Notes: a model not told the origin generated them from the letters alone. Shown: positions 1,665-54,755, counted from the stretch's first letter. The stretch: 64,000 bases of DNA from Escherichia coli (GCF_029227855.1 NZ_CP074356.1), one strand, 5' to 3'. Made by a program: numbers and translations.

Positions 1665-3742
<2,078 letters not shown>

Positions 3743-19790: not shown

Positions 19791-19794
19791 AACG

Positions 19795-20699: not shown

Positions 20700-20701
20700 C
20701 G

Positions 20702-23154: not shown

Positions 23155-23164
23155 TTCCGTTTCT

Positions 23165-25554: not shown

Positions 25555-25565
25555 CTTTCAGCTCC

Positions 25566-25841
25566 TTAGCGCGAAAGCGTATCGACAATGCCGACCACTG
25601 CCAGGTCGATGGCCTCGTTAGGGCCGGAAAACACATGTCTGGCGCTGGAACCACTGCTGAGGAGTACCAACTCACCAACGCCTGCGCCGACTGAATCAAC
25701 GGCAACTTCGTCGCCGGTTAATGGCGTGAGAGGCAGTTCGCCGTCAGCACTGACCCGGCGAACCAGCAGCAGTTTTTTCCCGATCAGAGATGGTGATTTT
25801 TGCGTGGATACTACCGCGCCAGTGACTCGAGCCAGATGCAT
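25566..25841 (-). CDS. pduN: BMC vertex (pentamer) protein PduN (EutN/CcmL family)
   Basis: 91-aa ORF ([27 protein letters not shown]...). Confidence 0.92.
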
Positions 25842-25844
25842 AGG

Positions 25845-26965: not shown

Positions 26966-26967
26966 TG

Positions 26968-27390
26968 CTACTCCCCTCGCTTATTGGCGTACAGGCAAAG
27001 TGAGCGGGGCTCACCTTTTTGCCGCTGACATGCCGGGTCAAGACACAAATTACAACTGATAATCTCTGAGGTGACGGTTGTTGCTGGTGTTTTGCTTGTT
27101 TCAACCGTCACGGTCAATGCTTCAATTGTGTGGGGCAGAATGCCGTCTCCCGGGCGGGCAATCACTTTGTGTGCGACAAGGCCATTTCGCTGTCCGGCGA
27201 AACTGGCTCCCGTCGCGATCGCCGCATTAACCGAGGCGACGTCACCGGTGATTTTGATGAGCGTCCAGCCTGAGCCATTGGTCTTCTCAAGGCCAACCAG
27301 CGTGATGGACGCGGCTTTTGCCATAGCGTCTGCGCAACTGATGGCGAGAGCCAGACCACTGACTTCAAGTAATCCCAGTGATTGCTTCAC
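26968..27390 (-). CDS. pduK: BMC shell protein PduK with Cys-rich C-terminal tail
   Basis: 140-aa ORF with an N-terminal BMC domain (MKQSLGLLEVSGLALAISCADAMAKAA) and the tail CNLCLDPACQRQKGEPRSLC. Confidence 0.9.
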   Translation of the reverse strand: MKQSLGLLEVSGLALAISCADAMAKAASITLVGLEKTNGSGWTLIKITGDVASVNAAIATGASFAGQRNGLVAHKVIARPGDGILPHTIEALTVTVETSKTPATTVTSEIISCNLCLDPACQRQKGEPRSLCLYANKRGE

Positions 27391-27413
27391 GCTGTGCTCC
27401 TTAGCGAATGGGG

Positions 27414-27689
27414 TTATGCTGATTTAGGTAAAATAGCCTCAACATCACTGTGTGGGCGCGGGATGACATGGCAGGATTTCACTTCGCCAACGGCGCTTGC
27501 GGCGGCGCTTCCTGCATCAACGGCGGCTTTTACTGCGCCAACATCGCCACGGACCATCACCGTAATCAGACCCGAACCAATCTTTTCATAGCCAACCAGC
27601 TGCACGTTGGCGGATTTAACCATGGCATCTGCAGCTTCAATTGCGCCAACTAACCCTTTTGTTTCAACCAGTCCTAGTGCGTTGTTCAT
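27414..27689 (-). CDS. pduJ: BMC hexamer shell protein PduJ
   Basis: 91-aa ORF ([41 protein letters not shown]...). Confidence 0.95.
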
Positions 27690-27708
27690 ACTGCATTTCT
27701 CCTGTGGA

Positions 27709-28059
27709 TTATGAGTGGAGTTCCCGGAAGGGAATCCCTTTTACCAGGCGGGCAGCGTTAGAGCCAATGCTGCGCCGGGCATGGTTATCTTGTTGATACA
27801 TCAGCGTAAACAGTGGCGCTGATGCCGGTAAGTTTTTGTAATGCACAATCAGTTTTTCCTGATCGCAGGCAATGCCAACCAACAGGGGAGATTGACTAGC
27901 AGCCAGCCAGGCGCTATCGATAACTTCACCTGACGGAATGTGTTGAATGCGAAAGGGAATACCTTCCTCTTCAATGCCAAGAAGCACCTCATCCCATATA
28001 GTGATGCAGTTACCGATCTCCATGACGACGATGGCTGGTGCACGCTCTTTACTTTCCAT
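27709..28059 (-). CDS. pduH: Diol dehydratase reactivase small subunit
   Basis: 116-aa ORF overlapping the pduG 3' end, in the conserved pduG-H-J position. Confidence 0.9.
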
Positions 28060-29881
28060 GAATCGACTCCTTGTGCCAGGCGATGAGTAGCCCAGTAGCT
28101 ACCGCGTTGCGCGGACCTTCGCTACCACGGATATTCCCCCGTCCGGCGACCAATCGATAATGCGCCAATGCATCGGTGACTAACTGCGGTACTTCGAAAT
28201 CCAGCGAAGAACCGCCCACCAGAACGACGAACGGAATATCGCGAATATTTCCGGCAGGGCTTACCTGACGTAGCGCGCGCAGGGCATTGGTTACGAAGAC
28301 ACGCTCTTTCGCACTGCGGCGGACAGCGCGTACTTTTTCCAGCGTCAAATCACCGGGAATGGGCACCAGTTCGTCGGGTTTCACTACACAGACGCGGGCA
28401 AATACATGGGGGGATAGGGGAGTAGGGAAGAACTGAACGCTGCCATCTTCATGGCGTAAGTGGAACAGGCTTTCTACTTTTGCCAACGGGTACTTTTTGA
28501 TTTCTTCTGCCAGATAACGATCATTTAAGCCCAGCTCACGAGCGATAATCATCGTTACCATGTCGCCCGCTCCCGCAAGGTGAGTGGCAACAATTTCTCC
28601 TTTCTGATTGATGATGGAGGCATCGGTAGAGCCTGCACCTAAGTCCAGAATTGCCAGTGGACGTGTGGTTCCAGGGGTAGTCAAGGCCCCCTGAATGGCG
28701 GCTTCTGCTTCTGCGCCTCCGACCTGAACATCAACATGCAGTTTTTGCTTAATTTCACTGGCGATCATTGCCATTTGCAGACGGTCGGATTTCACCATAG
28801 AGGCAATACCCACAGCCTGTTCCAGTGAAAATTCACCTGCCAGACCGCCGGTTACGCTGACGGGGACAGAGGTATCTATCGCCAGCAAATCCTGAATAAA
28901 AATTTCGTTGCTGGGTTTGTTGGTCAGTTCCGCCATGGTCTGGCGAACATGTTCCAGCATTCCGCCGATGTTGGTGCCTGGTTCTCCCGTCACGTTTTCC
29001 AGTTTTGGGCACTCACCGACCGCTTTCATAATGGCATCGGCACCAGCAGCTACATCAACGCGCGTTGTGCGCCCGGCAGAAAGCAGTTCGATATTTCCGG
29101 CGGGTATCGAACGGGCTTTAACGTCGCCAGAAGGCGTTTTCACTACCACTGCTGAACGGTTGCCGATTAGCGCCCGCGCGACAGGAACAATATTTTTAGT
29201 CTCTTCAGCATTGAGGGCGAAAACGGTGGCAATCCCATACGGGTTAGACAGGGTTTCGATAACTTTCCCGGGAACGGCAACTTCAATTGCAGCCAGCATG
29301 CCGAGCGGAATACGATCGATGTAGAGGACTTCATCAACAATAGGTACAGCAATTTCCAGGCGGTTACTGACCAGCACGCCATCGTCGCGTTGCAGAATAA
29401 CGCCAGTCAGCTGATATCCGGCACGTACGGAGGCGTTTATCATCGTCGCGATATCGGCAAAATCAAATGCCGATGACACCACCAGGATGTAAGGTGTGTC
29501 CGCCGGGCGTGTTAATAACTCTTGCGGAGTGATGGTGAGCCCTACGCCCAGCCCCACTCCGCCCGGAGTTTTCGGGTTGTGACCGATCATGGTTGATTCG
29601 GTGATGATGGTTTCAGTGATGGTTTCCATCGCCACATCACCAATGACCGGAGTTGCTTCGTTGATACGAATAAGCGAAATATCGCTAACATTGATGCCGA
29701 CTTTTTTCGTTGCCTGTGCGAGCGCCTCCTGAATACCATGGACGTTACGCAACGTACCTTTAATTCCGGTGGTTTCCGCCAGGGCGCTACTCACGAACGA
29801 CAACTCTCCAGTTGCACTGAGCGTTGCCAGCGCAACCTCTGTTGATGAGTTGCCGATATCAATGCCTGCTATATATCGCAT
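28049..29881 (-). CDS. pduG: Diol dehydratase reactivase large subunit (ATPase, DdrA-like)
   Basis: 610-aa ORF (MRYIAGIDIGNSSTEVALATL...), actin/HSP70-like ATPase fold. Confidence 0.93.
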   Translation of the reverse strand: MRYIAGIDIGNSSTEVALATLSATGELSFVSSALAETTGIKGTLRNVHGIQEALAQATKKVGINVSDISLIRINEATPVIGDVAMETITETIITESTMIGHNPKTPGGVGLGVGLTITPQELLTRPADTPYILVVSSAFDFADIATMINASVRAGYQLTGVILQRDDGVLVSNRLEIAVPIVDEVLYIDRIPLGMLAAIEVAVPGKVIETLSNPYGIATVFALNAEETKNIVPVARALIGNRSAVVVKTPSGDVKARSIPAGNIELLSAGRTTRVDVAAGADAIMKAVGECPKLENVTGEPGTNIGGMLEHVRQTMAELTNKPSNEIFIQDLLAIDTSVPVSVTGGLAGEFSLEQAVGIASMVKSDRLQMAMIASEIKQKLHVDVQVGGAEAEAAIQGALTTPGTTRPLAILDLGAGSTDASIINQKGEIVATHLAGAGDMVTMIIARELGLNDRYLAEEIKKYPLAKVESLFHLRHEDGSVQFFPTPLSPHVFARVCVVKPDELVPIPGDLTLEKVRAVRRSAKERVFVTNALRALRQVSPAGNIRDIPFVVLVGGSSLDFEVPQLVTDALAHYRLVAGRGNIRGSEGPRNAVATGLLIAWHKESIHGK

Positions 29882-29890
29882 AGTTCGTCC

Positions 29891-30409
29891 TTAATCGTCG
29901 CCTTTCAGTTTTTTGCGCTCGACATAAAGTTCCGCAGCTTCACGGACAAATGCAGCACAAATTTTGGCCTGATAACGCCGTTCAAGATCGTCAGCAATGG
30001 CAATAAGTTCTTGCTTAGTCGAACGATAAGGGCGTAACGCATTGTAGATTTCGAGGATGCGATCATCCGGTACTGAGGTAAGCTCAGCGGCGCGTTCAAA
30101 ATTCATCGCCAGGCGATCGCGACCAGCATCTCTGGCAATCGCGGCCTGAATACGCAATGTTTCAGGGGTTATACGCATATCCTGGGCGGTGACGTTATCG
30201 CTGAGTACATTTTCCAGAGTGAAATCGTCGAGCGTTTTATTGGTCGCCGTTTTAACCCATTCCGGATGTTTATTTGCCAGCGGATAATCCGTCACTTTGG
30301 CGCTCTGTATTGACGCGTTGGGTGCCGCAGAAACAGGAGCTGCATCCTGTAAACTGTTCATGCGATTCAACACGTCCCTGACCATCGACTCAATTGCATC
30401 GGTATTCAT
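29891..30409 (-). CDS. pduE: B12-dependent diol dehydratase small (gamma) subunit
   Basis: 172-aa ORF (MNTDAIESMVRDVLNRMNSLQ...) in the pduC-D-E order. Confidence 0.93.
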   Translation of the reverse strand: MNTDAIESMVRDVLNRMNSLQDAAPVSAAPNASIQSAKVTDYPLANKHPEWVKTATNKTLDDFTLENVLSDNVTAQDMRITPETLRIQAAIARDAGRDRLAMNFERAAELTSVPDDRILEIYNALRPYRSTKQELIAIADDLERRYQAKICAAFVREAAELYVERKKLKGDD

Positions 30410-30423
30410 GAAGGTTTCCTTTG

Positions 30424-31092
30424 TTAAAACGTCACGCGCAGTTCTTGCGGTTTTTTGCCAGTGACCACGTACTTCGTCTCTTTAATATGCAAAATGGCAG
30501 ATTTGGCCTGGTATTTCGGCCGCGCCATTTGATCGTTGAGGGTCGGCACCGGTTGTGGAGACTCACGCTTTGCATAACGCGCGGCGTTTTTGCCAATCTG
30601 ACGATAAGTTTCCAGCGTCAACAAAGGCGCTTGTGGGAATAGTTCCAGGTTAGACAAGGGAGGAAGACCTTGCTGGTGGATAACCGTTGTGCCTTTCGAC
30701 TGAATACCGATAGCAATACCTGAACCACTAAGACGATCGCCTTCGACTGCTACGAATGCGACATCGGACGATTTAAAGCAGCGAATCACACGGGCTTTAA
30801 TGCCTTCTTCTTCGATACCAGCAATCACTTCGCGCAAGATGTTTTTATGCGGAATACCGATGATATTGACGGTTTGCGCCAGGCCGAACGCCGGGCCTAC
30901 AGCAATAATGACTTCATCTTGCTGAGTGCCTTGTTGGGCTTCGCCAATTTCGGCCAGAAAAGTTCCGGTATCTGGCGCGGAAGAGACAGTTGCACAGGCA
31001 GGTGCGCGAAATGAAACGGGCTTGTCGCTGGTTTGCATTTCTGCCAGCACGTCTTCGATAATCTGACGCAGTAATTTTTCGTTAATTTCCAT
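30424..31092 (-). CDS. pduD: B12-dependent diol dehydratase medium (beta) subunit
   Basis: 222-aa ORF with an N-terminal encapsulation helix ([19 protein letters not shown]). Confidence 0.93.
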
Positions 31093-31101
31093 TTCTCACC
31101 C

Positions 31102-32766
31102 TTAGTCAATTTCGTTGGGATCAAGTGCACCGGGAATATTTTTGATCTCTTCCCAGCGTTCCCCTTGCAGGCGGTAACCTGTAGCCGGTCCGGCGTAATC
31201 ATTGACGTCATTGACCGCAGAGAGCACTTGTCCGTCATCGACGATGATGGCTGAGGTATGGAGATAATCGCCGGTCAGTTTTGCTTTTTGCATGTTGAGC
31301 ATGTCTTGGGCGACATCGGTAAAACCGCCTTGCGCCAGGGCTTTCACCACTTCCAGGCTGTTCCGGTTTTTATTGATAATCTCCTGGGCGAACTTGATGT
31401 CTTCCACAATATTGCGCTCAGGCATATCTTTTGAACCGTGGGCATAGGTTGCCGCTTCGACTTCTTCATCGGTAATAGGCGGTAGTCCCATACCGGCAAA
31501 GACAGCCTGTAAAGCGCGAGCGGCTTTATTGCGGATAGCGATAACATCTTCTTCGCGTACTGGTCGCAGGCCGCCATCAACCTTCAGGTCACGCTGAATG
31601 ACGTTGTAATCATCGAAGTCTTCAGCATCTTCGTTTGAACCAGCAAACATGTTGTCGTAGTTCGGCACAGCGGAAAAACCGGAAGAGATAAAGTCGGTAC
31701 CTGGCAGAAACTGCATCAGGAAACGTGCGGTACGGCGCATATCCGAGTGGGTAAAGGTCTGGTCATTACTGGAGGCGCATTCCAGATCCAGCGATGAGCA
31801 AATTAAGTTTTCCGCTAATACTGCGCGGATGCCTGATGGCACAGCCGATGGAACACCGATGCAGCTTACCGAACCATTCTGTAGACCCTGAACTCCTGCG
31901 GCTTTGGTGATGTAAATGCAACGAGCCTCGAGATAAAGCATTGATTTGCCTTCCGCGTAACCCATCTGTACTTCAGAGCCGGAGCCGGAAGTAAAGCGCA
32001 TTTTTAAGCCGCGAGACGCATAGGATGACGCGAGAAATCCTTTTGACCACGGGGTGTCATCGCCATCGGTGAAAACAGGTTCTGTACCATAGACAGAAAT
32101 TGTTTCGGCGTAACAGGTGTGGCCTAACATACCGAGTTTCAGTTCGGTGGCTTCTTCCAGTGAACACTGGGTCAAGACGCCCGGACGTCCCACCTGTGAG
32201 CCGACCAGCAGGGCGATGGCGTTGAACGGGGCATAGCGAGCAACGGCAACGGTGGTTTCCTGTTCATCAAACCCGCGCCATGCGCCTTCAGCTGCGTCGG
32301 CGGCAATTTGTACCGGGTTATCTTTGACGTTGGTGACGTGAGCCTGTTGTGATGGTGTTCGACGGGCGCGCATTTTCTGCATCGCCATCATCATCTCTAC
32401 CACGTTCATCTGCGAAACAACTTCGACGATTTTTGCAGGCGTCATTGCTGTGGTAAGGGGAACGATATCGCTACGTTTGACATTTGGATCGCACAACATA
32501 TTGGCAAGTTTTACCGAATCCATCGCGATGACTTCTTCTGCACGCGCGAGATTGATGCCGTAGCGGGCGATAAAGTGGTCGATCAGGTCAAACTGGCTGG
32601 CGGGTTTTCCATCCAGTTCGGTAACGACGCCGTTAACAATTTTGATTGACGGTTTAGGATCGTTCGGGCTTTCCATCGCAATGAAGCCTTCTTCAATCCA
32701 CTCTTTAACGAAACCGTCCTGGTTGACCGGGCGTTTTGCCAGTGCTTCAAATCTTTTCGATCTCAT
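31102..32766 (-). CDS. pduC: B12-dependent diol dehydratase large (alpha) subunit
   Basis: 554-aa ORF (MRSKRFEALAKRPVNQDGFVKEWIEEGFIAMESPNDPKPSIK...). Confidence 0.96.
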   Translation of the reverse strand: MRSKRFEALAKRPVNQDGFVKEWIEEGFIAMESPNDPKPSIKIVNGVVTELDGKPASQFDLIDHFIARYGINLARAEEVIAMDSVKLANMLCDPNVKRSDIVPLTTAMTPAKIVEVVSQMNVVEMMMAMQKMRARRTPSQQAHVTNVKDNPVQIAADAAEGAWRGFDEQETTVAVARYAPFNAIALLVGSQVGRPGVLTQCSLEEATELKLGMLGHTCYAETISVYGTEPVFTDGDDTPWSKGFLASSYASRGLKMRFTSGSGSEVQMGYAEGKSMLYLEARCIYITKAAGVQGLQNGSVSCIGVPSAVPSGIRAVLAENLICSSLDLECASSNDQTFTHSDMRRTARFLMQFLPGTDFISSGFSAVPNYDNMFAGSNEDAEDFDDYNVIQRDLKVDGGLRPVREEDVIAIRNKAARALQAVFAGMGLPPITDEEVEAATYAHGSKDMPERNIVEDIKFAQEIINKNRNSLEVVKALAQGGFTDVAQDMLNMQKAKLTGDYLHTSAIIVDDGQVLSAVNDVNDYAGPATGYRLQGERWEEIKNIPGALDPNEID

Positions 32767-32784
32767 AAATCTGCCTCAGAGAAT

Positions 32785-33597
32785 TCAGATGTAGGAAGGG
32801 CGATCGTTTTTCGGTGTATCGCCGAGAGTCGAAAGCACGGTTTTACCGATTTCGCGTGCGGAGATGACCGCCTGGCGGACTGCGCCGGAGTCACCCGAGA
32901 TAATCAGAATGACTTCATTGCTGTAGCTGGTGCCTTGAGCGGGGGAGCTGTATGCCACAACATCCACATTGGCGGACTTCAGCGCGGTGTCTGCCATCAG
33001 AACACCCACAGCAGCCGGAGCGCCGACAATAACGCCGCAAGCCCGTCCCAATGGTGCACCAAACGCTTTTTCCAGTGCATAGCTGGCGCGGGCGGTATAT
33101 TGCAGCTCAAGATGTCCGGCTTCGTTGGCATAGACATCGCCAAAGGTTCGATCGAGTTCTTTCAGGGCAACTTCAATACCGCGTTTCACGTCGGAAACAT
33201 CGTTGCCACCTAAGAGGATCAATGAGCCGTGTCCGGCACCGCCTTTAGTATCGCGAGGAAGTTCAATGCTAATAACTTCAGTGTTGGTGGCTTTTACCGC
33301 TTCATCAGCGGCCATAATGTGTGGACCTGCGCCAATACGCGCACCCAGAATGCCAATGGAACGATAGCGTTTTTCAAGTTTCATTGCGTCCAACAGGGCG
33401 CTATCAACGTTCGCAATGACCAGACCTACAGTGTCGCCAATAGCGGTGCCAACAAATTCTGTTAATGTGCAGCTTTTTTCTGCCATAGCCGTCTCTCGTA
33501 TTTGATGAGTGGTTTTCGGGAGAACCTCATGCTCTGGCGTCGCTACGCGAGCGATGACCTGCGCCATGATCTGTTCGACCAGTTCATTGCTGCTCAT
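32785..33597 (-). CDS. pduB: Tandem-BMC trimer shell protein PduB
   Basis: 270-aa ORF. An internal Met ([13 protein letters not shown]) sits where Salmonella makes the shorter PduB' isoform. 4-nt overlap with pduA. Confidence 0.93.
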
Positions 33598-33878
33598 GGG
33601 TTAATTCCCTTTGGTAAGATTTTTTCGACATCGGTATGTGGGCGGGGAATAACATGTACGGCTTTTACTTCGCCGACGTTACGCGCAGCTGCGGCACCTG
33701 CGTCTGTTGCCGCTTTTACCGCCCCGACATCACCACGAACGATGACGGTCACCAGCCCGGAACCTATTTTTTCGTAGCCGACCAGCAAAACATTTGCCGA
33801 CTTCACCATGGCGTCTGCGGCCTCTATGGCGGCAGTTAAGCCTTTGGTTTCTACCATTCCTAACGCTTCTTGTTGCAT
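33594..33878 (-). CDS. pduA: BMC hexamer shell protein PduA, first gene of the pdu operon
   Basis: 94-aa ORF ([42 protein letters not shown]...). Confidence 0.96.
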
Positions 33879-34389
33879 AAAGACCTCGCCTGGATTTTTT
33901 TGACGATATGACTATAAAAAAAAGCGAGGAAAAAGAATGGCTGACTTAATCGGCTAATGAGAAAAATTAATAGAGAACAAATATTATAAAATTGCTTTTA
34001 TGAACTATATGTTGTTAATTTATTAGTTGTTTTGTGGATATTTCAATGTGAATTAATTGCGTTGGCTAGTGAGTTTAATCGCGAGTAATATTTCGTTGAG
34101 TTTAGTTCGAGGAAGGAACTGTGATATTTGTTTCAATTTTATTATATCATGATGGCAATTTTTTATTGTGAAAGTTTGACAGTAATTATTACTTTCAACA
34201 CTGATTAACGCTGTGTTGCATGATTCGGCAATGACAATAATTTGTTATGTTAGCACGATTTTTACACGAGTCTGTCATGCATGTTGGCAATATTTTCTGC
34301 AGAGCAATTTTTTATAGTTGCGCTCGGTATACACAACAATCAGCGCGTAGTTGGCTGATAAAGAAAAACTCCGTAAAGAAGGTGTCACT
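33879..34389. promoter_or_regulatory. Divergent pdu / pduF-pocR control region
   Basis: About 510 bp of very AT-rich ORF-free DNA between the divergent pduA and pduF. It corresponds to the PocR/CRP/ArcA/IHF-controlled region in Salmonella. Individual sites were not resolved. Confidence 0.5.
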
Positions 34390-35199
34390 ATGAATGATTC
34401 ACTCAAGGCGCAATGCGTTGCCGAGTTTTTAGGCACCGGACTGTTCCTCTTTTTTGGCATTGGTTGTTTGTGCGCCCTGAAAGTTGCCGGGGCAAGTCTG
34501 GGACTGTGGGAAATTTGTATCATTTGGGGGTTAGGGATTTCGCTTGCTGTTTACCTTACGGCAGGTATTTCCGGCGCTCATCTCAACCCGGCAGTTACCA
34601 TTGCTCTGTGGCTGTTTGCCTCTTTCCCAGCCCGTAAAGTGCTGCCATTTTGTGTGGCGCAATTAGCGGGTGCTTTTGGTGGTGCGATTCTGGCATATTC
34701 TCTCTACAGCAGTTTATTTACCGATTTTGAATCTGCTCACAATATGGTGCGTGGTAGCGCAGAAAGTTTACAACTCGCCAGTATCTTCAGTACTTATCCG
34801 GCAGCGGCGATTAATGTATGGCAAGCTGCGTTGGTCGAAGTGGTCATAACGTCCATGTTAATGGGGTTGATTATGGCGTTGACCGATGACGGTAATGGCG
34901 TACCCAAAGGACCACTTGCGCCTTTACTTATTGGTATTCTGGTTGCTGTTATTGGTGCTTCTACCGGACCATTAACCGGTTTTGCCATGAATCCAGCGCG
35001 TGATTTTGGACCTAAGATTTTCACCTGGCTTGCGGGGTGGGGAGAAATTGCGATGACTGGTGGACGCAATATTCCTTATTTCATTGTACCCATTATTGCA
35101 CCGATCATTGGGGCATGTGTTGGTGCGGCGATTTATCGCTATCTCATTGCAAAGAATTTACCTGTCAATAGTGTAGCGCCTAAAGAAATTAGCGAATAA
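34390..35199 (+). CDS. pduF: Propanediol diffusion facilitator (MIP/aquaglyceroporin family)
   Basis: The Met at MNDSLKAQCVAEFLGTG gives 269 aa with two NPA boxes (HLNPAVT, MNPARD). Confidence 0.93.
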   Translation: MNDSLKAQCVAEFLGTGLFLFFGIGCLCALKVAGASLGLWEICIIWGLGISLAVYLTAGISGAHLNPAVTIALWLFASFPARKVLPFCVAQLAGAFGGAILAYSLYSSLFTDFESAHNMVRGSAESLQLASIFSTYPAAAINVWQAALVEVVITSMLMGLIMALTDDGNGVPKGPLAPLLIGILVAVIGASTGPLTGFAMNPARDFGPKIFTWLAGWGEIAMTGGRNIPYFIVPIIAPIIGACVGAAIYRYLIAKNLPVNSVAPKEISE

Positions 35200-35401
35200 C
35201 GAAATAATCTGGCAGTTATAAACGTTTATTTTTTTACTGTTTGTGATCTGCTTTCCGAACTTATTAAAAAGTCTCCCGCTTCATGGAGGCTTTTGTTATT
35301 GTCCTTTGTGCTTCTCGTCAGTAAATCATCAGGGATGATGTGAAGATTAAATGTAAAACAATTGTTTTGCTATAACAATAAATTAACTGGGAGGTTTTAT
35401 C

Positions 35402-36316
35402 ATGATTTCTGCGGCGACACTTAATTCAGAACTCATTAATAAAATCGCGCAGGATTTTGCGCAGGCGACCAGCCTTGCGGTTGTCGTGGTCAATATTCAC
35501 GGCGATGAAATTTCCGAGCTGTTTAACTTCACTCCATTTTGTCAGATGATGCGGCAACACCCTCAGCTAAGCACTCGATGTCGCATGAGCGATCGTTGTG
35601 GGGGCCTGGAAGCCTCTAAATCCGATCAGCCTTGTATTTATCGCTGTCATGCCGGATTAACCGATTTCTCTATTCCACTGGTAATCGCCGGGCATTTAGT
35701 CGGTTTTGTATTGTGCGGGCAAGTTCGTCTGCGTAATGATGATGTCGATTTGGTCGATATTCTGAATGTCGATGATTGCTGGCAGGCAGATCCCGAATTA
35801 CTTAATGAATTCCGCAAAGTTCCTGAGATGGATTACTCAAGAGTTATGGCCTCTGCTGATTTGTTGAAGTTGATTGTGGAAAATTGCCTCAAAAAACAAC
35901 TCAATTTTGTGGTTATTAAAGAGAACAAATTTCAGTCAGATTCGGTGCGCCAGACTCGTGCGCCTAATCCCCACGACAATAAAATGAAAAAAGCTTTACG
36001 CTATATTGATGCGCATTTATCAGACGATTTGCGTCTGGAAGATGTCGCCTCGCACGTTTATCTAAGTCCTTATTATTTCAGTAAGTTATTCAAGAAATAC
36101 CATGGAATCGGTTTTAATGCGTGGGTAAACCAACAACGGATGGCCAGCGCTCGTGAGTTACTGTGCCATAGTGACTGGAGCATCGCCAGTATTGCGCGTA
36201 ATTTAGGTTTTTCGCAAACCAGTTATTTTTGCAAAGTTTTCCGTCAGACTTATCAGGTTACGCCGCAGGTGTATCGACAGCAAGTGAGTGAAAATGCGGT
36301 GATGGAAACGGTATAG
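35402..36316 (+). CDS. pocR: AraC-family activator of pdu/cob, PocR
   Basis: 304-aa ORF with an N-terminal PocR sensory domain and a C-terminal AraC HTH (YFSKLFKKYHGIGFNAW...SQTSYFCKVFRQ). Confidence 0.92.
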   Translation: MISAATLNSELINKIAQDFAQATSLAVVVVNIHGDEISELFNFTPFCQMMRQHPQLSTRCRMSDRCGGLEASKSDQPCIYRCHAGLTDFSIPLVIAGHLVGFVLCGQVRLRNDDVDLVDILNVDDCWQADPELLNEFRKVPEMDYSRVMASADLLKLIVENCLKKQLNFVVIKENKFQSDSVRQTRAPNPHDNKMKKALRYIDAHLSDDLRLEDVASHVYLSPYYFSKLFKKYHGIGFNAWVNQQRMASARELLCHSDWSIASIARNLGFSQTSYFCKVFRQTYQVTPQVYRQQVSENAVMETV

Positions 36317-45033: not shown

Positions 45034-45109
45034 TCCTCTGTAGTTCAGTCGGTAGAACGGCGGACTGTTAATCCGTATGTCACTGGTTCGAGTCCAGTCA
45101 GAGGAGCCA
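45034..45109 (+). tRNA. asnW: tRNA-Asn (anticodon GUU); integration target of the island
   Basis: 76 nt identical to asnV/asnU. Its 3' 16 nt form part of the island direct repeat. Confidence 0.98.
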
Positions 45110-45113
45110 AATT
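45094..45113 (+). repeat. attL direct repeat (tRNA 3' end)
   Basis: CCAGTCAGAGGAGCCAAATT. Confidence 0.9.
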
Positions 45114-45270: not shown

Positions 45271-46532
45271 ATGTCTTTAAACGATTCTAAAATCCGCAAG
45301 TTAAAACCCTCTTCCCGTCTGGTAAAACTCTCCGACTCTCACGGTCTGTATCTGCTCGTCAATCCGGGCGGTTCACGCATCTGGTATCTCAAATATCGTT
45401 TCAACGGAAAAGAATCCAGAGTCAGTCTTGGCGCATACCCGCTTGTCTCACTGGCAGAAGCCAGGCAACAGCGCGACGGTATCCGTAAGTTACTGGCGCA
45501 GAATATCAACCCGGCGCAGCAGCGCATGGCGGAGAAAGCGGCCTGCTCCCCTGAAAAGTGCTTTAAGGCAGTGGCGCTGGCCTGGCACAAAACCAACAAA
45601 AAATGGTCGGCTGATTATGCCGCCCGTATTCTCGCCAGTATGGAAAACCATATCTTCCCGGCGATTGGTCATCTGCCAGTTGCCACTCTTAAAACGCAGG
45701 ATTTACTGCTTTGTTGCGGGTTATCGAGGATAAAGGCTTTCTGGAAGTCGCGTCCCGAACCCGGCAGCAACTCAGCAACATCATGCGCTATGCCGTTCAG
45801 CAGGGGCTTACCGAAAGCAATCCGGCGCAGCATCTGGATGGCGTTGTCGCCTCACCCGTAAAGAATCACTACCCCGCGTTACTGCTGGAGCGGTTGCCCG
45901 AACTGCTTGGCCGCATCGGTGACTATCAGCAGGGCCGGGAGTTAACACGGCTGGCGGTGGTGCTGACGTTGCACCTGTTTATCCGTTCCAGCGAACTGCG
46001 TTTCGCCCGCTGGAGCGAGATCGATTTCAGGCACAAAATCTGGACCATCCCCGCCACCCGCGAGGCAATCGACAAAGTACGGTTTTCGGGGCGTGGCGCA
46101 AAAATACGTACCCCGCATATCGTGCCGCTCTCCCGCCAGGCGATTGCCATTCTGAAACAGATACAGGAGCTTTCCGGCCATCTGGATCTGGTGTTTCCCG
46201 GTGATCATAACCCGTACAAGCCAATGAGTGAAAACACCACCAACCGGGCGCTACGCCTGATGGGGTATGATACGAAAACTGAAATCTGCGGGCATGGACT
46301 CAGGGCGATGGCCTGTAGCGCCCTGGTGGAGTCGGAGCTGTGGTCACGCGATACGGTGGAGCGGCAAATGAGCCACCAGGAGCGTAACAGCGTGCGGGCA
46401 GCCTATGTGCATAAAGCGGAGCATCTGGAGGCCAGAAAGGCCATGATGCAGTGGTGGTCGGATTATCTGGATGTGTGCCGCGAGGGGTATGTTGCGCCGT
46501 ACATTTATGCCCGGCAGCATAAGGCAGCCTGA
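45271..46532 (+). pseudogene. int: P4-type tyrosine integrase, disrupted by a 1-nt frameshift near 45706-45710
   Basis: The N-terminal part (MSLNDSKIRKLKPS...LKTQDLL) is in frame 1. The continuation (LLRVIEDKGFLEVASR...HGLRAM...RAAYVH) is in frame 3. Joining needs one extra base. The catalytic HxxR and Y are present downstream. Confidence 0.85.
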
Positions 46533-46568
46533 ATCAGAAATAACGGAAATCATTAAAAATGTAAAAGC

Positions 46569-46594
46569 AGATCCTGATTGACCGGGATCTGCTT
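46569..46594 (+). terminator. Hairpin after the integrase gene
   Basis: agcagatcc-tgattgacc-gggatctgct. The T tract is weak. Confidence 0.4.
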
Positions 46595-46737
46595 ATTGTA
46601 TTGAGAAGTATTACCATTTTTCTGTTATTATCAATCGGAAAGTATCTAAAAATATTTGGCCCCAAATAATTTTGGTGAAAACCAATCAATAAACCATTTA
46701 TCAATAGGTAAGTACCGGAAATTATTCCAGTAGAATA

Positions 46738-47092
46738 TTTTCAGGCGATTGCCTATTAATAAATACATTATTGATAGATAAGTGCCTTCTGTGATTTGTC
46801 CGCAAATCACAGAAGATGAAAACCTATCAATACGGGATATTTTCACGGAAATACCAATTAATACTCCAGAATATCTCCTGACCATATACTCTGAAACCTG
46901 TAAGAACTGCATCAGATATTGAGAGACCATATAGATATAAGTCTGAAATTATTTTGTTTCCAATGATTTCAGGCGAAAACCTATCAATGCATCTGTTTTC
47001 AATAGGCAGCCACCTTCCGTGATTAACATGTTAATCACGGAAGGTGAAAAGCTATCAATAATCGATATTTTCACGGAATTACCACTTAATAC
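46738..47092. repeat. Two diverged ~127-bp tandem units (46738-46864, 46967-47092; period ~229 bp), each centred on a 30-32-bp palindrome
   Basis: Both units start with tttcaggcga and end with gatattttcacggaaNtaccaNttaatac. Palindrome A is cttctgtgatttgtccgcaaatcacagaag (46786-46815). Palindrome B is the perfect 32-mer ccttccgtgattaacatgttaatcacggaagg (47013-47044). Confidence 0.85.
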
Positions 47093-47688
47093 ATCCCAAA
47101 AAATGCGCCATAAAATACCGGGCAATCTTTCCTGATACACATTATCACTGCACCAGCTATACAGAGACAAAATAATCTGCACCAGCCCCTGTAAATCGGT
47201 TATTTGTGCCAGTGTCCCGCCGCTCTACCTGTTCAGGGTTGTGCCAGTTTCTGGCCCTTTGGTTTTCGGCCCTTTCCGGTCAGGCGCTGTTACCCTTATT
47301 GCCCCTTAACCTTTATGACCCTTTCCCTTTCTGACGCAACCAGTTTATTTTGAAATGCTCCATGACAGTCTGCACCAGACTGTATTTTCACCACAGGATA
47401 ACGATCACAAAGTGCAAAAAAATAACATGAAGCACCGAAGATTGTTAATCTATATGTAGCAGGTAATGATGTCAAAAACTGTCGCAGCATTTTTTATAAA
47501 ATTATGAGACATTCTGTGGGCATATAATATATGTCACAAGATGCAGGAAAACAAAGAGAGAGTTTTCAGATATAATCCTGCGTTAGAATTAATGTGATGC
47601 CCCGGTGAATTTACATTTTAAAATTTCCCTGTCCCGTAATATCGGTAAAAACGATTGAAACACCAACTATTAATCGGGAACGTCTCGA

Positions 47689-47707
47689 GTGATTACAGGG
47701 TAATCAC
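47689..47707. repeat. Third GTGATTA...TAATCAC palindrome
   Basis: gtgattac-agg-gtaatcac shares half-sites with the palindromes at 46786 and 47013. Confidence 0.7.
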
Positions 47708-47869
47708 TATAATATCCCGGCAAACTATATTGGTTAAGCAGGAGAATCTGATCAGTTGATATTTATTCGTCATGCTGTAACGATATTTTCACAATATAAA
47801 CCCGTTCGCCCCCTGCGCCAGATCCGGTACAGAGGGTACGATAAATCGCTGTCGTTACGCAGTAACGTA

Positions 47870-48487
47870 CTATTTTGCGACAATCATGAATTCAGTCATT
47901 CCTCCCTCCAGCGGTAGCCGTACACCTGTTTCACCCAGCGACCGCGACCGTCGCCATGACCCAGATCCGTCGCCGTCAGCGCCAGTGACTCCTTTTCGCT
48001 GAATCCCTGCGCCAGTATCCAGGACTGTCGTATAACGGGGACGCCCGCCTTTGGTGCCAAATACCACTTTTAACCGGGTTTCACCGCGGGAAATGGCTTT
48101 CAGCCACGTTTTCAGCGACTGTGAACTCTGTACCGCCTCCTGCGAACGCAGCCCCATCAGCCGCGCAATCTCCAGCGCTGCTGCCAGCCCTGCGTCCTGA
48201 GTACGGGCTTTCTCCATCACCTGCCTGCGTCCAGCCTGTCTCAGCACGGCCCGCAACGCTGCCATTTCGTTTTGCAACGTTCGTAAACCAATATCCAGCT
48301 CCAGCCGTTCCTCAATGTAGCATTCGATATGGCGAACCTTGATCTGCTCCACCCGCTGGATCTGGATATTCAGCGCCCGTAAATGTTCACTGAACCGTTT
48401 TGTAATATGGATACGGTCATTCACCGTTGTGAAGCTGCCGCCCGCTTTCTTCGCCAGCGCCTTCATTTCACTGCTTAATTTACTCAT
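47870..48487 (-). pseudogene. Degraded integrase/recombinase-like gene (N-terminal domain retained, internal deletion plus frameshift)
   Basis: The 205-aa ORF starts MSKLSSEMKALAKKAGGSFTTVNDRIHITKRF...IKVRHIECYIEERL, which looks like a recombinase N-terminal domain (recalled). After ...GGRPRYTTVLD the sensible continuation (WILAQGFSEKESLALTATDLGHGDGRGRWVKQVYG) lies in another frame (48021 to 47896). Confidence 0.45.
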
Positions 48488-49403
48488 GAATCCCTCTGCA
48501 ACAAAAACAAACAGTCTCCGGCGTGTGCTTTTTGGCTGCGCCAGAACGATACCTTTACGCCGGAGTGGTAGTTTGTTGAGGTTTAGGGAGTTTCAGGCTG
48601 TACGCAGTACAGACTGCCTGCGAAGCAGGAGTGTCTCCGGGGCTTCTTGCCCCCCTCGGTATCGATCTTTTTCTCCTTTACTCTTAGCTGACAGCGGCCC
48701 CAAAGGGCATGTCAGACGGCGGAAATATGGCGCAGGCCAGAACTGGCGCGGCTTGTGGCGGTGAGTTGTGCGGCGTCACTTTGCTTTTTCGCTGGCGCGA
48801 CCAAAGTGACGCCTCGTCTGGTGCAGGGGGTAAACGTTACGTTTCTGGTGCAGGGTGACGGTCACGCGGCAGCAAAGCCTGACGGCAATGCAGGCCGCAG
48901 CCCGTCAATGTAAGGCGCTGGTTGTCAGCAGAAGATAAAACCCGGCAAAGCCAGAGTGTCAGCCCGTAAAGCCGGGTATCTGGTGCAGTGATGGTGTATA
49001 TGTACGTCAGTCTCAGATGCAGGTATTTTTGCATCCCCGGCGTTTTCAGAGATCAACGCCGGTAAAGGATGCCATGCTGGCGAAGCCAGGCGCTTCTTTC
49101 AGACGTGAAGCGACAAAGGGACTGCCCGGAGGCAGTTTGTTGCAGGCGGGAGACTGCGCCATTATTTCTGGTGCAGGAAGGAAAAACTGTTTCCGGGTTT
49201 AAAAGATTGTTTGCTTACCTGGTGACGGAAAAACTGCCGCGCTTCGCTTGTCTTCTCCCGGCGCGCTGCCAGCAAAAGCAGGCAGCGCGCCGGGAGAGTC
49301 TGGTTTTACTGTAACAATGCGCCTGACGGTTCAGCCATCAGGATCGGCGTTTATGCATGAGTCTTCCGGTACGGTTGCCCCGATCATCGATGTATCTGGA
49401 CGG

Positions 49404-49592
49404 TCAGATAATTTCCGGTGATGTTTCCAGCGCATCCGCAATCAGTTTTTCGCCGCGCGGCCTGGAGCGGGTCAGCGCATTTGCCAGCGTGGAAGACGCC
49501 AGCCCGGCCCTGCGGGAAACCTCAGCCAGCGATGTTCCCTTTTTTCTCAGGCCCGCGATAATATCGGCGGGGTGCCAGTCGGGTTGCATCAT
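49404..49592 (-). CDS. Ner/Nlp(SfsB)-family HTH DNA-binding protein, C-terminally truncated by TGG to TGA
   Basis: 62-aa ORF (MMQPDWHPADIIAGLRKKGTSLAEVSRRAGLASSTLANALTRSRPRGEKLIADALETSPEII*). The frame continues PSRYIDD... after the stop, where family members read W-PSRY. Confidence 0.65.
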   Translation of the reverse strand: MMQPDWHPADIIAGLRKKGTSLAEVSRRAGLASSTLANALTRSRPRGEKLIADALETSPEII

Positions 49593-50050
49593 GCTGGCCT
49601 CCCGTCGATAACCTGTATGCCGTCAGCAGTACATATCCAGCGTGGGGCGTTCAGATTGGCGGCAAAATACCAGACCAGTTCGCACAGCAGCCCGGTCAGC
49701 GTGGTTTCGGTTTCCGGCAGCAGCACGTGGCCGTTCAGTATCTGCGTCAGCGCCAGGCAGTAATCGCAGAGTGATCCTGCATCAGGCTCAAAACCGGGTG
49801 AAACATCGGGAAGATCATTCGTAATAAACCCGTCAATCAGATGTGGTGGGATCGGCTCGTTCAGCGTGGGCCGCAACAGTGCAAGACAGGTATTAAGCCT
49901 GCCACAGAGCGCCGTTTTCAGCGCCGGATCGCAGCACTCGATGAGCGTTGTGGCAACGCGATCGCAGTACTCCGCCAGATCGGTGAAATCGGTAGCGGCA
50001 CTAAAGGGAACAGCAAGTAAATTGCATTCAGAGGTGAGAGTAGTCGCCAT
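49589..50050 (-). CDS. Hypothetical 153-aa Cys-rich acidic protein, translationally coupled to the Ner-like gene
   Basis: The ORF (MATTLTSECNLLAVPFSAATDF...) ends in an ATGA overlap with the downstream Ner-like start. No family was recognised and the SD is weak. Confidence 0.45.
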   Translation of the reverse strand: MATTLTSECNLLAVPFSAATDFTDLAEYCDRVATTLIECCDPALKTALCGRLNTCLALLRPTLNEPIPPHLIDGFITNDLPDVSPGFEPDAGSLCDYCLALTQILNGHVLLPETETTLTGLLCELVWYFAANLNAPRWICTADGIQVIDGRPA

Positions 50051-50571
50051 AAGGCCGTCTACAGTGAGTGATAAATATTCCAGCCACTGGAGAGGCTAAT
50101 CTCACGGGTGGTGGAACCGGACGGGGTTAGCCTTACCAGCCTCACTGACACTGGCGCGTCTTTCGACGCCCCCGCCCGATCCCGCCATTGAGATGAGACC
50201 GTGCGCGACACACAAATATTGTATCGTCAGTGAGGATCTTCAGGAGGCTAATCCCGACGCCTGATTTTGCAGGCGCGGCGCAACAATACAATGTTCGGTA
50301 ATTTTCAGCAAGAGGTTTAGCGGAAGCAGACGCACAGGAAAATACAATCACGCGATAAATATTAAATACAATTATATTTATATAAAATATATATTGAGCA
50401 ATATGCAGACACTTTCCAGTAAATATCCTGTCAGTTAATTCGTCCCGTTGATATCAGTCAAAAAAATAAATGTAAAAAGAGCGTATTTCGTTTCATACAG
50501 TAACGTTATTTATCATTTTGTCCGGTGTCGCCAGCATCAGGCCAGATGAACCATAAAAAAGGATATCAGCG

Positions 50572-53500
50572 ATGAGCGGAAAACCGGCAGCACGTCAGGG
50601 CGATGCCACAATGAAAGGTGGCCCGATAGTCCAGGGGTCGGCAGGCGTGAGGATTGGCGCGCCAACCGGCGTGGCCTGTTCAGTGTGCCCCGGCGGATTC
50701 ACTTCCGGTAACCCGGTGAATCCGCTGCTCGGTGCAAAAGTACAGCCCGGCGAAACCGATTTCGCGCTGCCCGGCCCGTTACCGTTCGTGCTCTCCCGCA
50801 CCTACAGCAGCTACCGGACGAAAACCCCTGCGCCCGTCGGTATCTTCGGTCCTGGCTGGAAAGCACCCTTTGATATCCGCTTACAGATACGCGATAACGA
50901 ACTGATACTCAATGATAACGGTGGCAGAAGCATTCATTTTGAGCACCTGTTTCCCGGTGAGGATGGCTTCAGCCGCAGCGAATTATTCTGGCTGGTGCGC
51001 GGCGGCGTGGCGAAACTGAATGAAAGTCACCGTCTTGCCCCACTCTGGCAGGCTCTGCCGGAAGAACTCCGCATGAGTCCGCATATTTATCTGGCGACGA
51101 ACAGTCCGCAGGGGCCGTGGTGGATACTCGGCTGGAGTGAGCGGGTACCGGGTGTGGATGAGGTGCTGCCTGCGCCATTGCCGCCGTACCGGGTGCTGAC
51201 CGGCCTGGTGGACCGCTTCGGGCGTACCCTGACCTTCCGGCGTGAGGCAGTTGGCGAATTTACCGGGGAAATCACCGGCGTGACCGATGGCGCAGGCCGT
51301 CAGTTCCGCCTGGTGCTGACCACGCAGGCGCAGCGGGCGGAAGAGGCCCAGCAGCAGGCGGTTGCAGCCGGAGCAAAACGACCAGATATCCCGGTTTCAT
51401 TGCCGGACTATACAGAATATGGCCGGGATAACGGCATCCGCCTGTCAGCGGTGTGGCTGACGCATGACCCGGAATACCCGGAGAATTTACCTGCCGCGCC
51501 ACTGGTGCGCTACGACTGGACGCCACGCGGTGAACTGGCGGCGGTGTATGACCGCAGCGGTACGCAGATGCGCCACTTTACTTACGATGATAAATACCGG
51601 GGCCGGATGGTGGCGCACCGTTACGCAGGCAGGCCGGAGATGCGTTACCGCTACGACGACATCGGGCGCGTGACGGAACAACGTAATCCGGCGGGTTTAA
51701 GCTACACCTATCAGTATGAGAAAAACCGCATCATCATCACCGACAGCCTGAACCGGTGCGAGGTGCTGCATACAGAAGGCGAAGCCGGGCTGAAACGGGT
51801 GGTGAAAAAAGAGCACGCTGACGACAGCGTCACACAGAGTCAGTTCGATTCCATTGGCCGCCTTCAGTCACAGACGGATGCGGCAGGCCGGACGACAGAA
51901 TACAGTCCGAATGTGGTGACGGGTCTCGTCACACGCATCACCACGCCGGACGGCAGGAAATCGGAATTTTACTATAACAACCAGAACCAGTTAACCTCAG
52001 CATCCGGGCCTGACGGACTGGAAATGCGCAGGAAATATGATGAGTACGGGCGTCTGACGCAGGAAACCGCTCGCAACGGCGATATCACCCGCTACAGTTA
52101 TGATAATCCGCACAGTGAATTACCCTCTGCAACTGAAGATGCGACGGGTAGCCGCAAGCAGATGACGTGGAGCCGTTACGGGCAGTTACTGACTTTCACC
52201 GACTGCTCAGGCTACCAGACCCGTTATGAATACGACCGCTTTGGTCAGATGACGGCGGTCCACCGTGAGGAAGGTGTCAGTCTTTACCGCAGCTATGACA
52301 GCCGTGGTCAGTTAATCTCGGTGAAAGATACGCAGGGCCGTGAAACGCAGTATGAGTACAACGGTGCAGGCGACCTGACCGCCATTATCACGCCAGACGA
52401 CAACAGAAGCGAGACACAGTACGATGCGTGGGGAAAGGCCGTCAGTACCACGCAGGGCGGGCTGACGCGCAGCATGGAATACGACGTTGCCGGACGTGTC
52501 ATCAGCCTGACCAACGAGAACGGCTGTCACAGCGACTTCAGTTACGATGTGCTCGACCGCCTGATACAGCAGAGCGGCTTTGACGGGCGGACGCAACGTT
52601 ACCGTTACGACCTGACCGGGAAACTCACGCAGAACGAGGATGAGGGGCTTGTCACCCTCTGGCACTACGACGAATCGGACCGTATCACACACCGCACGGT
52701 GAACGGCGAACCGGCAGAGCAGTGGCGGTATAACGCCCACGGCTGGCTGAAAGAAATCAGCCACCTGAGCGAAGGTCACCGGGTGGCGGTGCATTACGGC
52801 TATAACCGTAAGGGACGTCTCACCGGCGAGCGCCAGACGGTGCATAACCCGGAGACGGGGGAACTGCTCTGGCTGCATGAGACAAAACACGCCTACAACG
52901 AACAGGGTCTGGCAAACCGCGTCACGCCGGACTGCCTGCCTGCTGTGGAGTGGCTGACCTACGGCAGCGGTTACCTGGCGGGGATGAAGCTGGGCGACAC
53001 GCCGCTGCTGGAGTACGCGCGCGACCGCCTGCACAGAGAAACGGTGCGCAGCTTTGGCAGCATGGCAGGCAGTAATGCCGCATACGAACTGACCAGCACA
53101 TACACCCCCGCAGGCCAGTTACAGAGCCAGCACCTGAACAGCCTGGTGTATGACCGTGACTATGGGTGGAATGACAACGGCGACCTGGTGCGCATCAGCG
53201 GCCCGCGACAGACGCGGGAATACGGCTACAGCGCCACGGGCAGGCTGGCGAGTGTGCGCACCCTCGCACCGGACCTGGACATCCGCATCCCGTATGCCAC
53301 GGACCCGGCGGGCAACCGGCTGCCGGACCCGGAGCTGCACCCGGACAGTACACTCACAGTGTGGCCGGATAACCGCATCGCGGAGGATGCGCACTATGTC
53401 TACCGCCACGATGAATACGGCAGGCTGACGGAGAAGACGGACCGCATCCCGGCGGGTGTGATACGGACGGACGACGAGCGGACCCACCACTACCACTACG

Positions 53501-54753
53501 ACAGCCAGCACCGCCTGGTGTTCTACACGCGGATACAGCATGGAGAGCCACTGGTCGAGAGCCGCTACCTCTACGACCCGCTGGGACGGCGAATGGCGAA
53601 AAGGGTATGGCGGCGGGAGCGTGACCTGACGGGGTGGATGTCGCTGTCGCGTAAACCGGAGGAGACATGGTACGGGTGGGACGGCGACAGGCTGACGACG
53701 GTGCAGACTGACACCACGCGTATCCAGACGGTGTACCAGCCGGGAAGCTTCACGCCGCTCATCAGAATCGAAACAGACGTGACCGAACTGGAGAAAGCGC
53801 AGCGGCGAAGCCTGGCGGAGAAGTTACAGCAGGAAGGGAGTAAAGATGGTCACGGCGTGGTGTTCCCGCCTGAACTGGTGCGGCTGCTGGACAGGCTGGA
53901 GGGGGAAATCCGGGCAGACCGTGTGAGTGACGAAAGCCGGGCGTGGCTTGCGCAGTGCGGGCTGACGGTGGAGCGGCTGGCGGCACAGATCGAGCCAGTT
54001 TATTTGCCTGAGCGAAAAATACATCTTTATCACTGCGACCACCGGGGACTGCCGCTGGCGCTTATCAGTACTGAAGGTGCAACGGAATGGCGTGGGGAGT
54101 ATGACGAGTGGGGGAATCAGCTTAATGAGGAGAACCCGCATCATCTGTTCCAGCCATACCGCCTGCCGGGGTAGCAGTACGATGATGAATCGGGGCTGTG
54201 CTATAATCGTTATCGTTACTACGAGCCGTTACAAGGGAGGTATATTACACAGGACCCGATTGGGTTAAATGGGGGGTGGAATTTATATAAATATCCGCTG
54301 AATCCAATAAATTATGCAGATCCTCTTGGCTTAGCCGTAGATATAAACCACTTCCCAGTCAACGAAGACATACGAAATTATGCAGAGAAAGTTTGGAATA
54401 ATCCTAATATCATTACAATTGGAACACATGGTGATCCTCAATCAGTATATGATGAAAATTATAATAAGATAGATGTCAAGACATTAGCTAATGAGGTTCG
54501 AAATCATCCTAAATTTAAACCTGGAATGTCAGTAAGACTGTTATCCTGTAATACAGGAAAAGGAAATAACTCTTTTGCACAGCAATTGGCAGATGAACTA
54601 GGTGTGAGAGTCTATGCTCCTGACCAATATGACTGGTACTATTCAAATGGTAAGGTAGAGCCTTGGGGAGGATTCTATGATGCAAACAATCAATTGCAAA
54701 TGGACACGAATCAGCCTGGACATGAGTTTACATTCAAGCGAAGGAAACCATAG
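50572..54753 (+). pseudogene. rhs: PAAR-Rhs polymorphic toxin interrupted by a single in-frame amber codon (TAG 54172-54174)
   Basis: The N terminus is a PAAR-like domain ([11 protein letters not shown]...[10 protein letters not shown]), followed by many YD repeats. After ...PYRLPG* the same frame continues [31 protein letters not shown]...YADPLGL (DPxGL at 54319-54333) and a 139-aa AT-rich tip ending at 54753. Confidence 0.9.
54334..54750 (+). other. Rhs C-terminal variable (toxin) domain, family not recognised
   Basis: 139 codons follow DPLGL and composition switches abruptly to AT-rich. The string ...[10 protein letters not shown]... is followed 40 residues later by ...[11 protein letters not shown]... 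(His codon 54427, Cys codon 54547). Confidence 0.6.
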
Positions 54754-54755
54754 GT

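Follow-up and report, generated by a model that had tools for sequence, protein, structure and literature searches.

Probable stepwise decay of a 10.5-kb Rhs toxin island at the asnW gene of Escherichia coli

Introduction

A genomic island of ~10.55 kbp sits at the 3' end of asnW, a tRNA-Asn gene, in one Escherichia coli chromosome (GCF_029227855.1, NZ_CP074356.1), and it raises the question of how and in what order its genes were broken, and whether the candidate immunity gene that remains open has been kept so by selection. We analysed a 64,000-nucleotide stretch of this chromosome, referred to here as the window. A preliminary description, made from the sequence alone, had proposed that small lesions in an integrase gene, a recombinase-like gene, a Ner-like regulatory gene and an rhs gene mark an island frozen in place under recently relaxed selection, with an immunity gene held intact against kin carrying the active toxin. 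Alignment to intact alleles bears out the view of separate mutational events in otherwise readable genes; all four lesions are confirmed and a fifth event, a second deletion in the recombinase-like gene, is added. The lesions are not uniformly recent, however, as those in three of the genes are fixed in a clade (present in 49 to 67 genomes) and only the rhs nonsense codon is private to this strain. The 10.5-kb asnW island has very probably decayed stepwise by ordinary mutation.

Results

Lesions in the integrase, recombinase, Ner-like and Rhs genes

The genes and domain that enter the argument are as follows, with positions counted from the first nucleotide of the window.

45271 to 46535, plus strand: P4-type tyrosine integrase pseudogene (alignment to the intact 420-amino acid allele, Pfam, PGAP)
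47896 to 48487, minus strand: second tyrosine-recombinase-like pseudogene, Phage_int_SAM_2 plus Integrase_1 (alignment to intact alleles, Pfam, PGAP)
49341 to 49592, minus strand: Ner-like helix-turn-helix (HTH) gene, TGG to TGA at 49404-49406 (translation, Pfam HTH_35)
50572 to 54753, plus strand: Rhs element core gene with C-terminal toxin (NCBIfam, Pfam, translation across the stop)
54334 to 54750, plus strand: toxin domain of 139 amino acids (aa), downstream of the stop, with a caspase-like (clan CD) cysteine-protease fold
54810 to 55358, plus strand: candidate immunity gene, Sel1/TPR-like, 182 aa, 549 bp (weak TPR and Sel1 Pfam matches)

The integrase gene starts 162 nt downstream of asnW and was compared with the intact 1263-nt, 420-aa allele of an O121:H19 strain (locus L004). 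The two share 94% nucleotide identity, and the only indel is a single C missing between 45704 and 45705, where the window reads GATTT-ACTGCT and the L004 allele GATTTCACCGCT. The expected one-nucleotide frameshift is thus present, a few bases from the 45706-45710 first proposed. Its effect is to spread Pfam domains Arm-DNA-bind_3, Phage_int_M and Phage_integrase over two frames, with the Phage_int_M profile broken at positions 50/52. In the nearest genome, strain JNEC-KY178 (NZ_AP045174.1), PGAP labels the integrase 'frameshifted'. Programmed frameshifting was set aside, since the deletion site GATTT/ACTG is neither a slippery sequence nor a homopolymer.

A deletion with a change of frame had been predicted in the recombinase-like gene at 47870-48487. 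Both are present, but alignment to L003 and L004, whose alleles are intact (885 nt, 294 aa), reveals two deletions rather than one. The first removes 99 bp in frame between 13-bp repeats (GCAGGTGNTGGAG; retained copy at 48212-48224), and the second removes 194 bp between 9-bp repeats (CTGGCGCAG; retained copy at 48007-48015) and shifts the frame. The 194-bp deletion takes out the HxxR region (HSLRYAW) and leaves the C-terminal tyrosine region (YGYRW) out of frame. From the repeats at their ends, both deletions look microhomology-mediated. PGAP calls this gene 'frameshifted' too in the nearest genome.

In the Ner-like gene the predicted TGA stands at the tryptophan codon of a conserved IIWPSRY motif, at which L005, L007 and L009 encode W and L006 encodes C. 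These four alleles come from different lineages and all encode 84 aa; the window gene encodes 62 aa, and reading through the TGA gives exactly 84.

The Rhs gene matches the NCBIfam RHS_core equivalog NF041261 with 2477 bits (cut-off 2000) and the Pfam families RHS_repeat (seven stretches), DUF6531 and RHS. The amber codon is present at 54172-54174, and the nearest genome has CAG at this position in an uninterrupted gene of 4182 nt encoding 1393 aa. A PxxxxDPxGL-type motif separates core from toxin at 54304-54333, downstream of the amber codon, which is located 53 codons before the end of the motif. Core and toxin therefore share an open frame in the nearest genome and not in the window, and with the amber codon in place they cannot be produced as one protein. 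The only in-frame methionine codon downstream of it (54526) falls after the toxin histidine. Judging from these sequences, the product of each broken gene has probably lost its function.

Distribution of the lesions

We searched 5,426 complete E. coli genomes with 41-mers centred on each lesion, at a word size of 28, so that only carriers of the allele give a match. The numbers of carriers are:

194-bp deletion junction: 67 of 5,426 genomes
Integrase frameshift: 49 of 5,426 genomes
99-bp deletion junction: 49 of 5,426 genomes
Ner TGA: 49 of 5,426 genomes
Rhs TAG: 0 of 5,426 genomes

The distribution is nested, with the 194-bp deletion outermost, then the three lesions found in 49 genomes, and then the amber codon; all 15 of the names listed for the 49-genome sets recur in the list of 67. 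Strains JNEC-KY178, MLI106K3 and ETEC1748 contain all of the older lesions. A sister branch (PCN033, strain 1190, an O166:H15 strain and F344) also has the island at asnW, with an intact integrase and an intact 84-aa Ner-like gene; of the lesions in the window it has only the 194-bp deletion, and it has a frameshift of its own (L009-L011 and L020) in a 153-aa open reading frame (ORF) that is intact in the window. The two asnW branches differ by 0.35-0.65% within the island and by 1.4-3% in yeeO and on the yeeN side, indicating that the island spread after its recombinase had already been damaged.

Sequencing error was rejected for the integrase, recombinase and Ner-like lesions, because their alleles are shared by 49 to 67 independent complete genomes. 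The notion that the short forms of the integrase, recombinase and Rhs genes are native was also rejected, as full-length alleles occur in close relatives.

Decay is recurrent and independent in this island family. The toxin/immunity module is present in 91 of the 5,426 genomes, always as a single copy and with at least 99% identity. In a third lineage, located at asnU or asnV, the integrase is intact and so, in most cases, is the recombinase; the Ner-like gene is frameshifted or deleted, and a poly-G tract throws the Rhs gene out of frame. Individual strains have further Rhs lesions: D9 has an additional indel plus a stop codon, A29 lacks 5' sequence, PEA12-26 has an IS1 in the toxin domain, and ETEC1748 combines a 72-bp deletion with a tryptophan-to-stop change in the toxin domain; in ETEC6333 an IS1 took out everything left of the immunity gene. 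Relatives at asnT, asnU and asnV also include copies with an integrase interrupted by IS1, a recombinase with an internal stop, and Rhs genes that are truncated or deleted by IS1. Further genes (higA, DUF2169, PAAR, tssF, tssG and vgrG) are found in larger and more distant relatives, at asnT and other sites, which makes the family a vehicle for type VI secretion cargo.

The poly-G tract of the asnU/asnV lineage is an observation in its own right. In L004, L008, L015, L017, L018 and L019 the codons CCG GGT GTG GAT GAG (equivalent to window positions 51147-51161) are replaced by a run of seven to nine G, which varies in length by strain and is out of frame in six of six; no run of this kind is present in the window. 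The tract could be a hot spot of strand slippage, perhaps one that switches the gene on and off, or else an assembly artefact of the homopolymer.

A proposed order of events

The lesions, their intact counterparts, the nested distribution, the att repeats and the toxin fold were observed directly, and the following scheme would connect them. A P4-type tyrosine integrase would have inserted the island, with an Rhs toxin and a presumed Sel1/TPR-like immunity gene as cargo, into the 3' end of asnW. The 194-bp deletion between 9-bp repeats would then have broken the second recombinase, and islands in this state would still have reached different chromosomal backgrounds. On one branch, the one-nucleotide deletion would have broken the integrase, the 99-bp deletion between 13-bp repeats would have further damaged the recombinase, and the TGG to TGA change would have truncated the Ner-like regulator. 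Last, and in this strain alone, the CAG to TAG change would cut Rhs just before the toxin-delimiting motif, so that no toxin-bearing Rhs could be made.

Are all the lesions real and inactivating, and is the island fixed?

Some observations weigh against counting every lesion as a true inactivating mutation. The 62-aa Ner-like product is not among the pseudogenes called by PGAP, which annotates it as a normal helix-turn-helix protein, and most of the HTH domain is kept (the HTH_35 match spans profile positions 1-58 of 75). UGA stops leak when the next base is C, so some Ner-like function may remain, and near-cognate read-through of UGA inserts tryptophan, which is the original residue here. Together with the unchanged state of the TGA allele in 49 genomes, this would suit a shortened Ner-like protein that is functional and tolerated. 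We find that reading rather doubtful, as the four relatives from separate lineages retain 84 aa, with three W and one C in the WPSRY motif, and the independent frameshifts and deletions in the asnU/asnV lineage suggest that the gene is dispensable. The amber codon in Rhs is found nowhere else and so could be a sequencing error: its 41-mer is in none of the 5,426 complete genomes and in no metagenome contig, an exact-product look-up returned no record of the truncated 1200-aa Rhs product, and the nearest genome, at 10 differing positions over 59 kb, has CAG. Were this a sequencing or assembly error, this strain would, like JNEC-KY178 and MLI106K3, have an intact Rhs gene, which would leave the older lesions as the only real ones. 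However, a single-base substitution is not the usual form of an assembly error, the nine other differences look like ordinary single-nucleotide polymorphisms (SNPs), and Rhs has been inactivated independently in other members of the clade, all of which makes an error unlikely. The same nine include a private nonsense mutation in the nearest genome, which has CAA changed to TAA (Q52, at 12906) in the core gene tsuA/yeeE (12753-13811), a gene that is intact in the window. A private nonsense SNP is what very close strains show before selection acts and is not special to the island; the 10 SNPs, of which three lie in the 10.5-kb island, two in the adjacent spacer and five in 45 kb of backbone, show no excess of private mutations in the island. 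Whether it arose by very recent mutation or, less probably, as a sequencing error, the private amber codon says little about relaxed selection in the island.

Whether the island is frozen in place is a separate matter. With their integrase broken, the 49 genomes of the clade plausibly have it fixed; from the same frameshift, the island has probably lost the capacity for self-excision. Every sampled copy with the frameshifted integrase is at asnW. A related asn-tRNA integrase acting in trans, or homologous recombination in the flanks, might nonetheless still move it, considering that both 20-bp att cores are identical, that relatives occupy all four asn tRNA genes (asnT, asnU, asnV and asnW), and that copies with the dead integrase adjoin yeeO alleles differing by 0.2-0.8%. 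The occupancy of the four genes, as read from the genomes, would imply past mobility, but for the branch with the dead integrase neither an excision product nor a second site was seen, and continuing movement of these copies appears improbable. Stepwise decay of an island now plausibly fixed in this clade is the reading that we prefer.

The candidate immunity gene

The Sel1/TPR-like ORF is open in the window, 57 nt downstream of the Rhs gene; a longer version of it starts at 54756. In relatives it is annotated as a tetratricopeptide or sel1 repeat protein, and it always accompanies this toxin domain, its position suggesting that it presumably encodes the immunity protein. It has not been free of change: the window has a private missense mutation, ATG to ATA at 55127 (M106I in the 182-aa model), absent from all 15 other alleles, and in an enterotoxigenic E. 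coli (ETEC) lineage slippage in a poly-A run frameshifts the C-terminus and rewrites the last residues.

That the gene is intact was expected if immunity is still selected, and the data are compatible with selection acting on it against kin that still fire the toxin, leaving the toxin gene free to decay. The ORF is open in all 16 copies examined, whereas Rhs is disrupted in 10 of the 16 by at least three independent first hits; in one lineage the gene is retained after an IS1 removed everything to its left; identity between lineages is 99.3% or more over the toxin domain and immunity gene, against ~90.6% over the Rhs core; and the point estimate of the ratio of nonsynonymous to synonymous substitution rates (dN/dS) is ~0.39. 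However, the gene is 7.6 times smaller than Rhs (549 versus 4182 bp), and it is because of this small size that the absence of hits is unremarkable. The remaining island genes, ~7 kb in all, have taken about 15 disruptive events; at that density ~1.2 would be expected in 549 bp, and none would be seen with a probability of ~0.3. In the lineage whose Rhs has long been dead ~0.7 hits would be expected, and overall the probability of seeing none is ~0.3-0.5. The dN/dS value is derived from five nonsynonymous and three synonymous variable sites in 14 alleles and does not differ significantly from neutrality (P=0.18). All three singletons are nonsynonymous, M106I among them, and the C-terminus in the ETEC lineage is frameshifted. 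The intactness of the ORF therefore stands but its attribution to selection does not; we consider such selection a possibility, and lean somewhat against it.

Since Rhs has been knocked out independently in at least three lineages and the Sel1-like gene is open in every copy examined, the pattern would fit resistance without attack. A toxin/immunity module that repeatedly becomes an immunity-only locus across E. coli, the toxin being an Rhs-borne caspase-like protease with a Sel1-repeat immunity protein, is a speculative extension of this that we hold with little confidence.

The toxin domain

The 139-aa domain has a caspase-like fold, with a conserved histidine in GTHG and a conserved cysteine in SCNTG; Cys72 is invariant, and the GxHG histidine is conserved in every aligned homologue that covers its position, so that the two are candidates for a His-Cys catalytic dyad. 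The domain has no sequence match in Pfam, NCBIfam or the PDB, and at the sequence level it belongs neither to PF14252 (DUF4347) nor to Peptidase_C80, with only a distant multi-copy homologue matching DUF4347. A library of 1.8 billion proteins contains 1,268 homologues, and among the top matches checked some are Rhs C-termini and others are multi-copy giant proteins. In the latter, of 3,000-6,800 aa, the domain occurs in three to six tandem copies, and one of these giant proteins also matches PI3/PI4-kinase-like and DUF4347 families.

The Rhs tail, toxin domain and immunity gene (54175-55400) are at least 99.3% identical between lineages and the Rhs cores (50572-54170) ~90.6%, suggesting either that the module was exchanged recently or that the cores underwent gene conversion.

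There are no type VI secretion system (T6SS) genes in the window, and the Rhs N-terminus has no Pfam match to PAAR, although DUF6531 was found. Delivery of this Rhs by type VI secretion, with PAAR/VgrG coupling, is presumed.

Island borders, regulatory elements and chromosomal context

The borders of the island are defined by these features:

45034 to 45109, plus strand: tRNA-Asn gene asnW, the integration target (ARAGORN, Rfam tRNA)
45094 to 45113, plus strand: attL core, a 20-bp exact direct repeat CCAGTCAGAGGAGCCAAATT that is the 3' end of asnW (repeat search)
55647 to 55666, plus strand: attR core, the second copy of CCAGTCAGAGGAGCCAAATT (repeat search)

Direct repeats derived from the tRNA gene are thus present at both borders, and in the nearest genome a tRNA-Asn is annotated between yeeO and the island. 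Where asnW is empty in other genomes, sequence corresponding to window position ~45121 is joined directly to ~55647; in L004 and L012 asnW passes straight into the yeeN flank. The window from 55647 onwards corresponds to the native asnW-yeeN flank of genomes that lack this island. From left to right the island contains the P4-type integrase, the second recombinase-like gene (minus strand), the Ner-like gene and the 153-aa ORF (minus strand), the Rhs gene (plus strand) and the Sel1/TPR-like ORF (plus strand).

Three further features belong to the minus-strand genes:

48543 to 48670, minus strand: EFASI RNA motif directly 5' of the broken recombinase (Rfam RF02957, 100.8 bits, gathering score 51.2)
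49589 to 50050, minus strand: 153-aa ORF, intact here, overlapping the start of the Ner-like gene (ORF list)
50104 to 50192, minus strand: C4 antisense RNA-like element directly 5' of the operon of the 153-aa ORF and the Ner-like gene (Rfam RF01695, 62.2 bits, gathering score 45)

The 153-aa ORF has no match in Pfam or NCBIfam. In relatives higA adjoins the Ner-like gene, and a tblastn search of the window found no trace of it. The EFASI motif and the C4-like element hint at a regulatory module of phage type.

A direct repeat of 131 nt with 73% identity (46734-46864 and 46962-47092) lies in the spacer that separates the integrase from the second recombinase. In the relative L006 a 99-aa ORF is annotated there (2862-3161), and its counterpart in the window is divided between two frames; this may represent a further lesion, although the gene itself is doubtful. 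An exact 18-nt match, TGGATGTCGCTGTCGCGT, is shared by the Rhs core (53635-53652) and the native asnW-yeeN spacer (55899-55916) outside attR, with a chance expectation of ~1e-4, and could be what is left of an earlier Rhs element at the asnW site.

The window as a whole is E. coli chromosome with the gene order wzzB, his operon, pdu operon, cob genes, ldtA, asnV, nac, cbl, asnU, yeeO, asnW, the island, yeeN, amn and shiA. A complete pdu (propanediol-utilisation) operon with pocR, pduF and a cobalamin riboswitch is located at 19347-36316, between tmaR and the cob genes and to the left of asnV.

Discussion

We have described a clean, dated decay series in one small island, in which a microhomology deletion is followed by a frameshift, a second deletion and a nonsense mutation, and then by a private nonsense mutation. 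It is not a new kind of element but ordinary gene decay, already visible and partly annotated in public genomes, and it has little importance beyond annotation. Three lesions go beyond the existing annotation (the second deletion in the recombinase, the truncation of the Ner-like gene and the amber codon private to this strain), as do the order of events and the fold of the toxin. A search of the literature for the asnW Rhs island and for the Rhs genes of strain PCN033 returned nothing specific to this locus. The locus also illustrates that the intactness of a small gene says little about selection until its size as a mutational target is allowed for, and a caspase-like Rhs toxin domain outside any Pfam family, with a Sel1-like partner, may be of interest for catalogues of type VI effectors.

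Comparison with known systems

Islands at asn-tRNA genes with P4-type integrases are well known in Enterobacteriaceae, including the high-pathogenicity island (HPI) at asnT and the pks island at asnW. The island described here resembles these in having an Arm-DNA-binding tyrosine integrase beside the 3' end of a tRNA-Asn gene and ~20-bp flanking direct repeats derived from the tRNA end, in occupying sites that are filled in some strains and empty in others, and in having an inactivated integrase, an inactivation that is frequent in such islands and fixes them in place. The likeness drawn here is one of layout, and the present island is far smaller (10.5 kb). Its cargo is an Rhs toxin/immunity pair rather than siderophore or polyketide genes, and it differs also in having the second recombinase-like gene (Phage_int_SAM_2/Integrase_1) and the EFASI and C4-like RNA motifs.

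The Rhs gene shares with the classical E. coli RhsA-E and with T6SS-delivered Rhs toxins the RHS core equivalog, a DPxGL-type demarcation motif, a variable C-terminal toxin and a small gene downstream, and the higher conservation of the toxin/immunity module than of the core is as expected for a module exchanged by recombination. However, it is located on a tRNA-integrating island rather than at one of the classical Rhs loci, its toxin belongs to no Pfam or NCBIfam family, and in this strain an amber codon severs the toxin from the core. Relative to the clan CD protease domains of MARTX, TcdA/TcdB and the Pseudomonas aeruginosa T6SS effectors Tce1 and Tce2 (PMC13323088), the toxin domain has only 8-18% identity, and the candidate protease is fused to an Rhs core rather than being loaded into Hcp or embedded in a large toxin.

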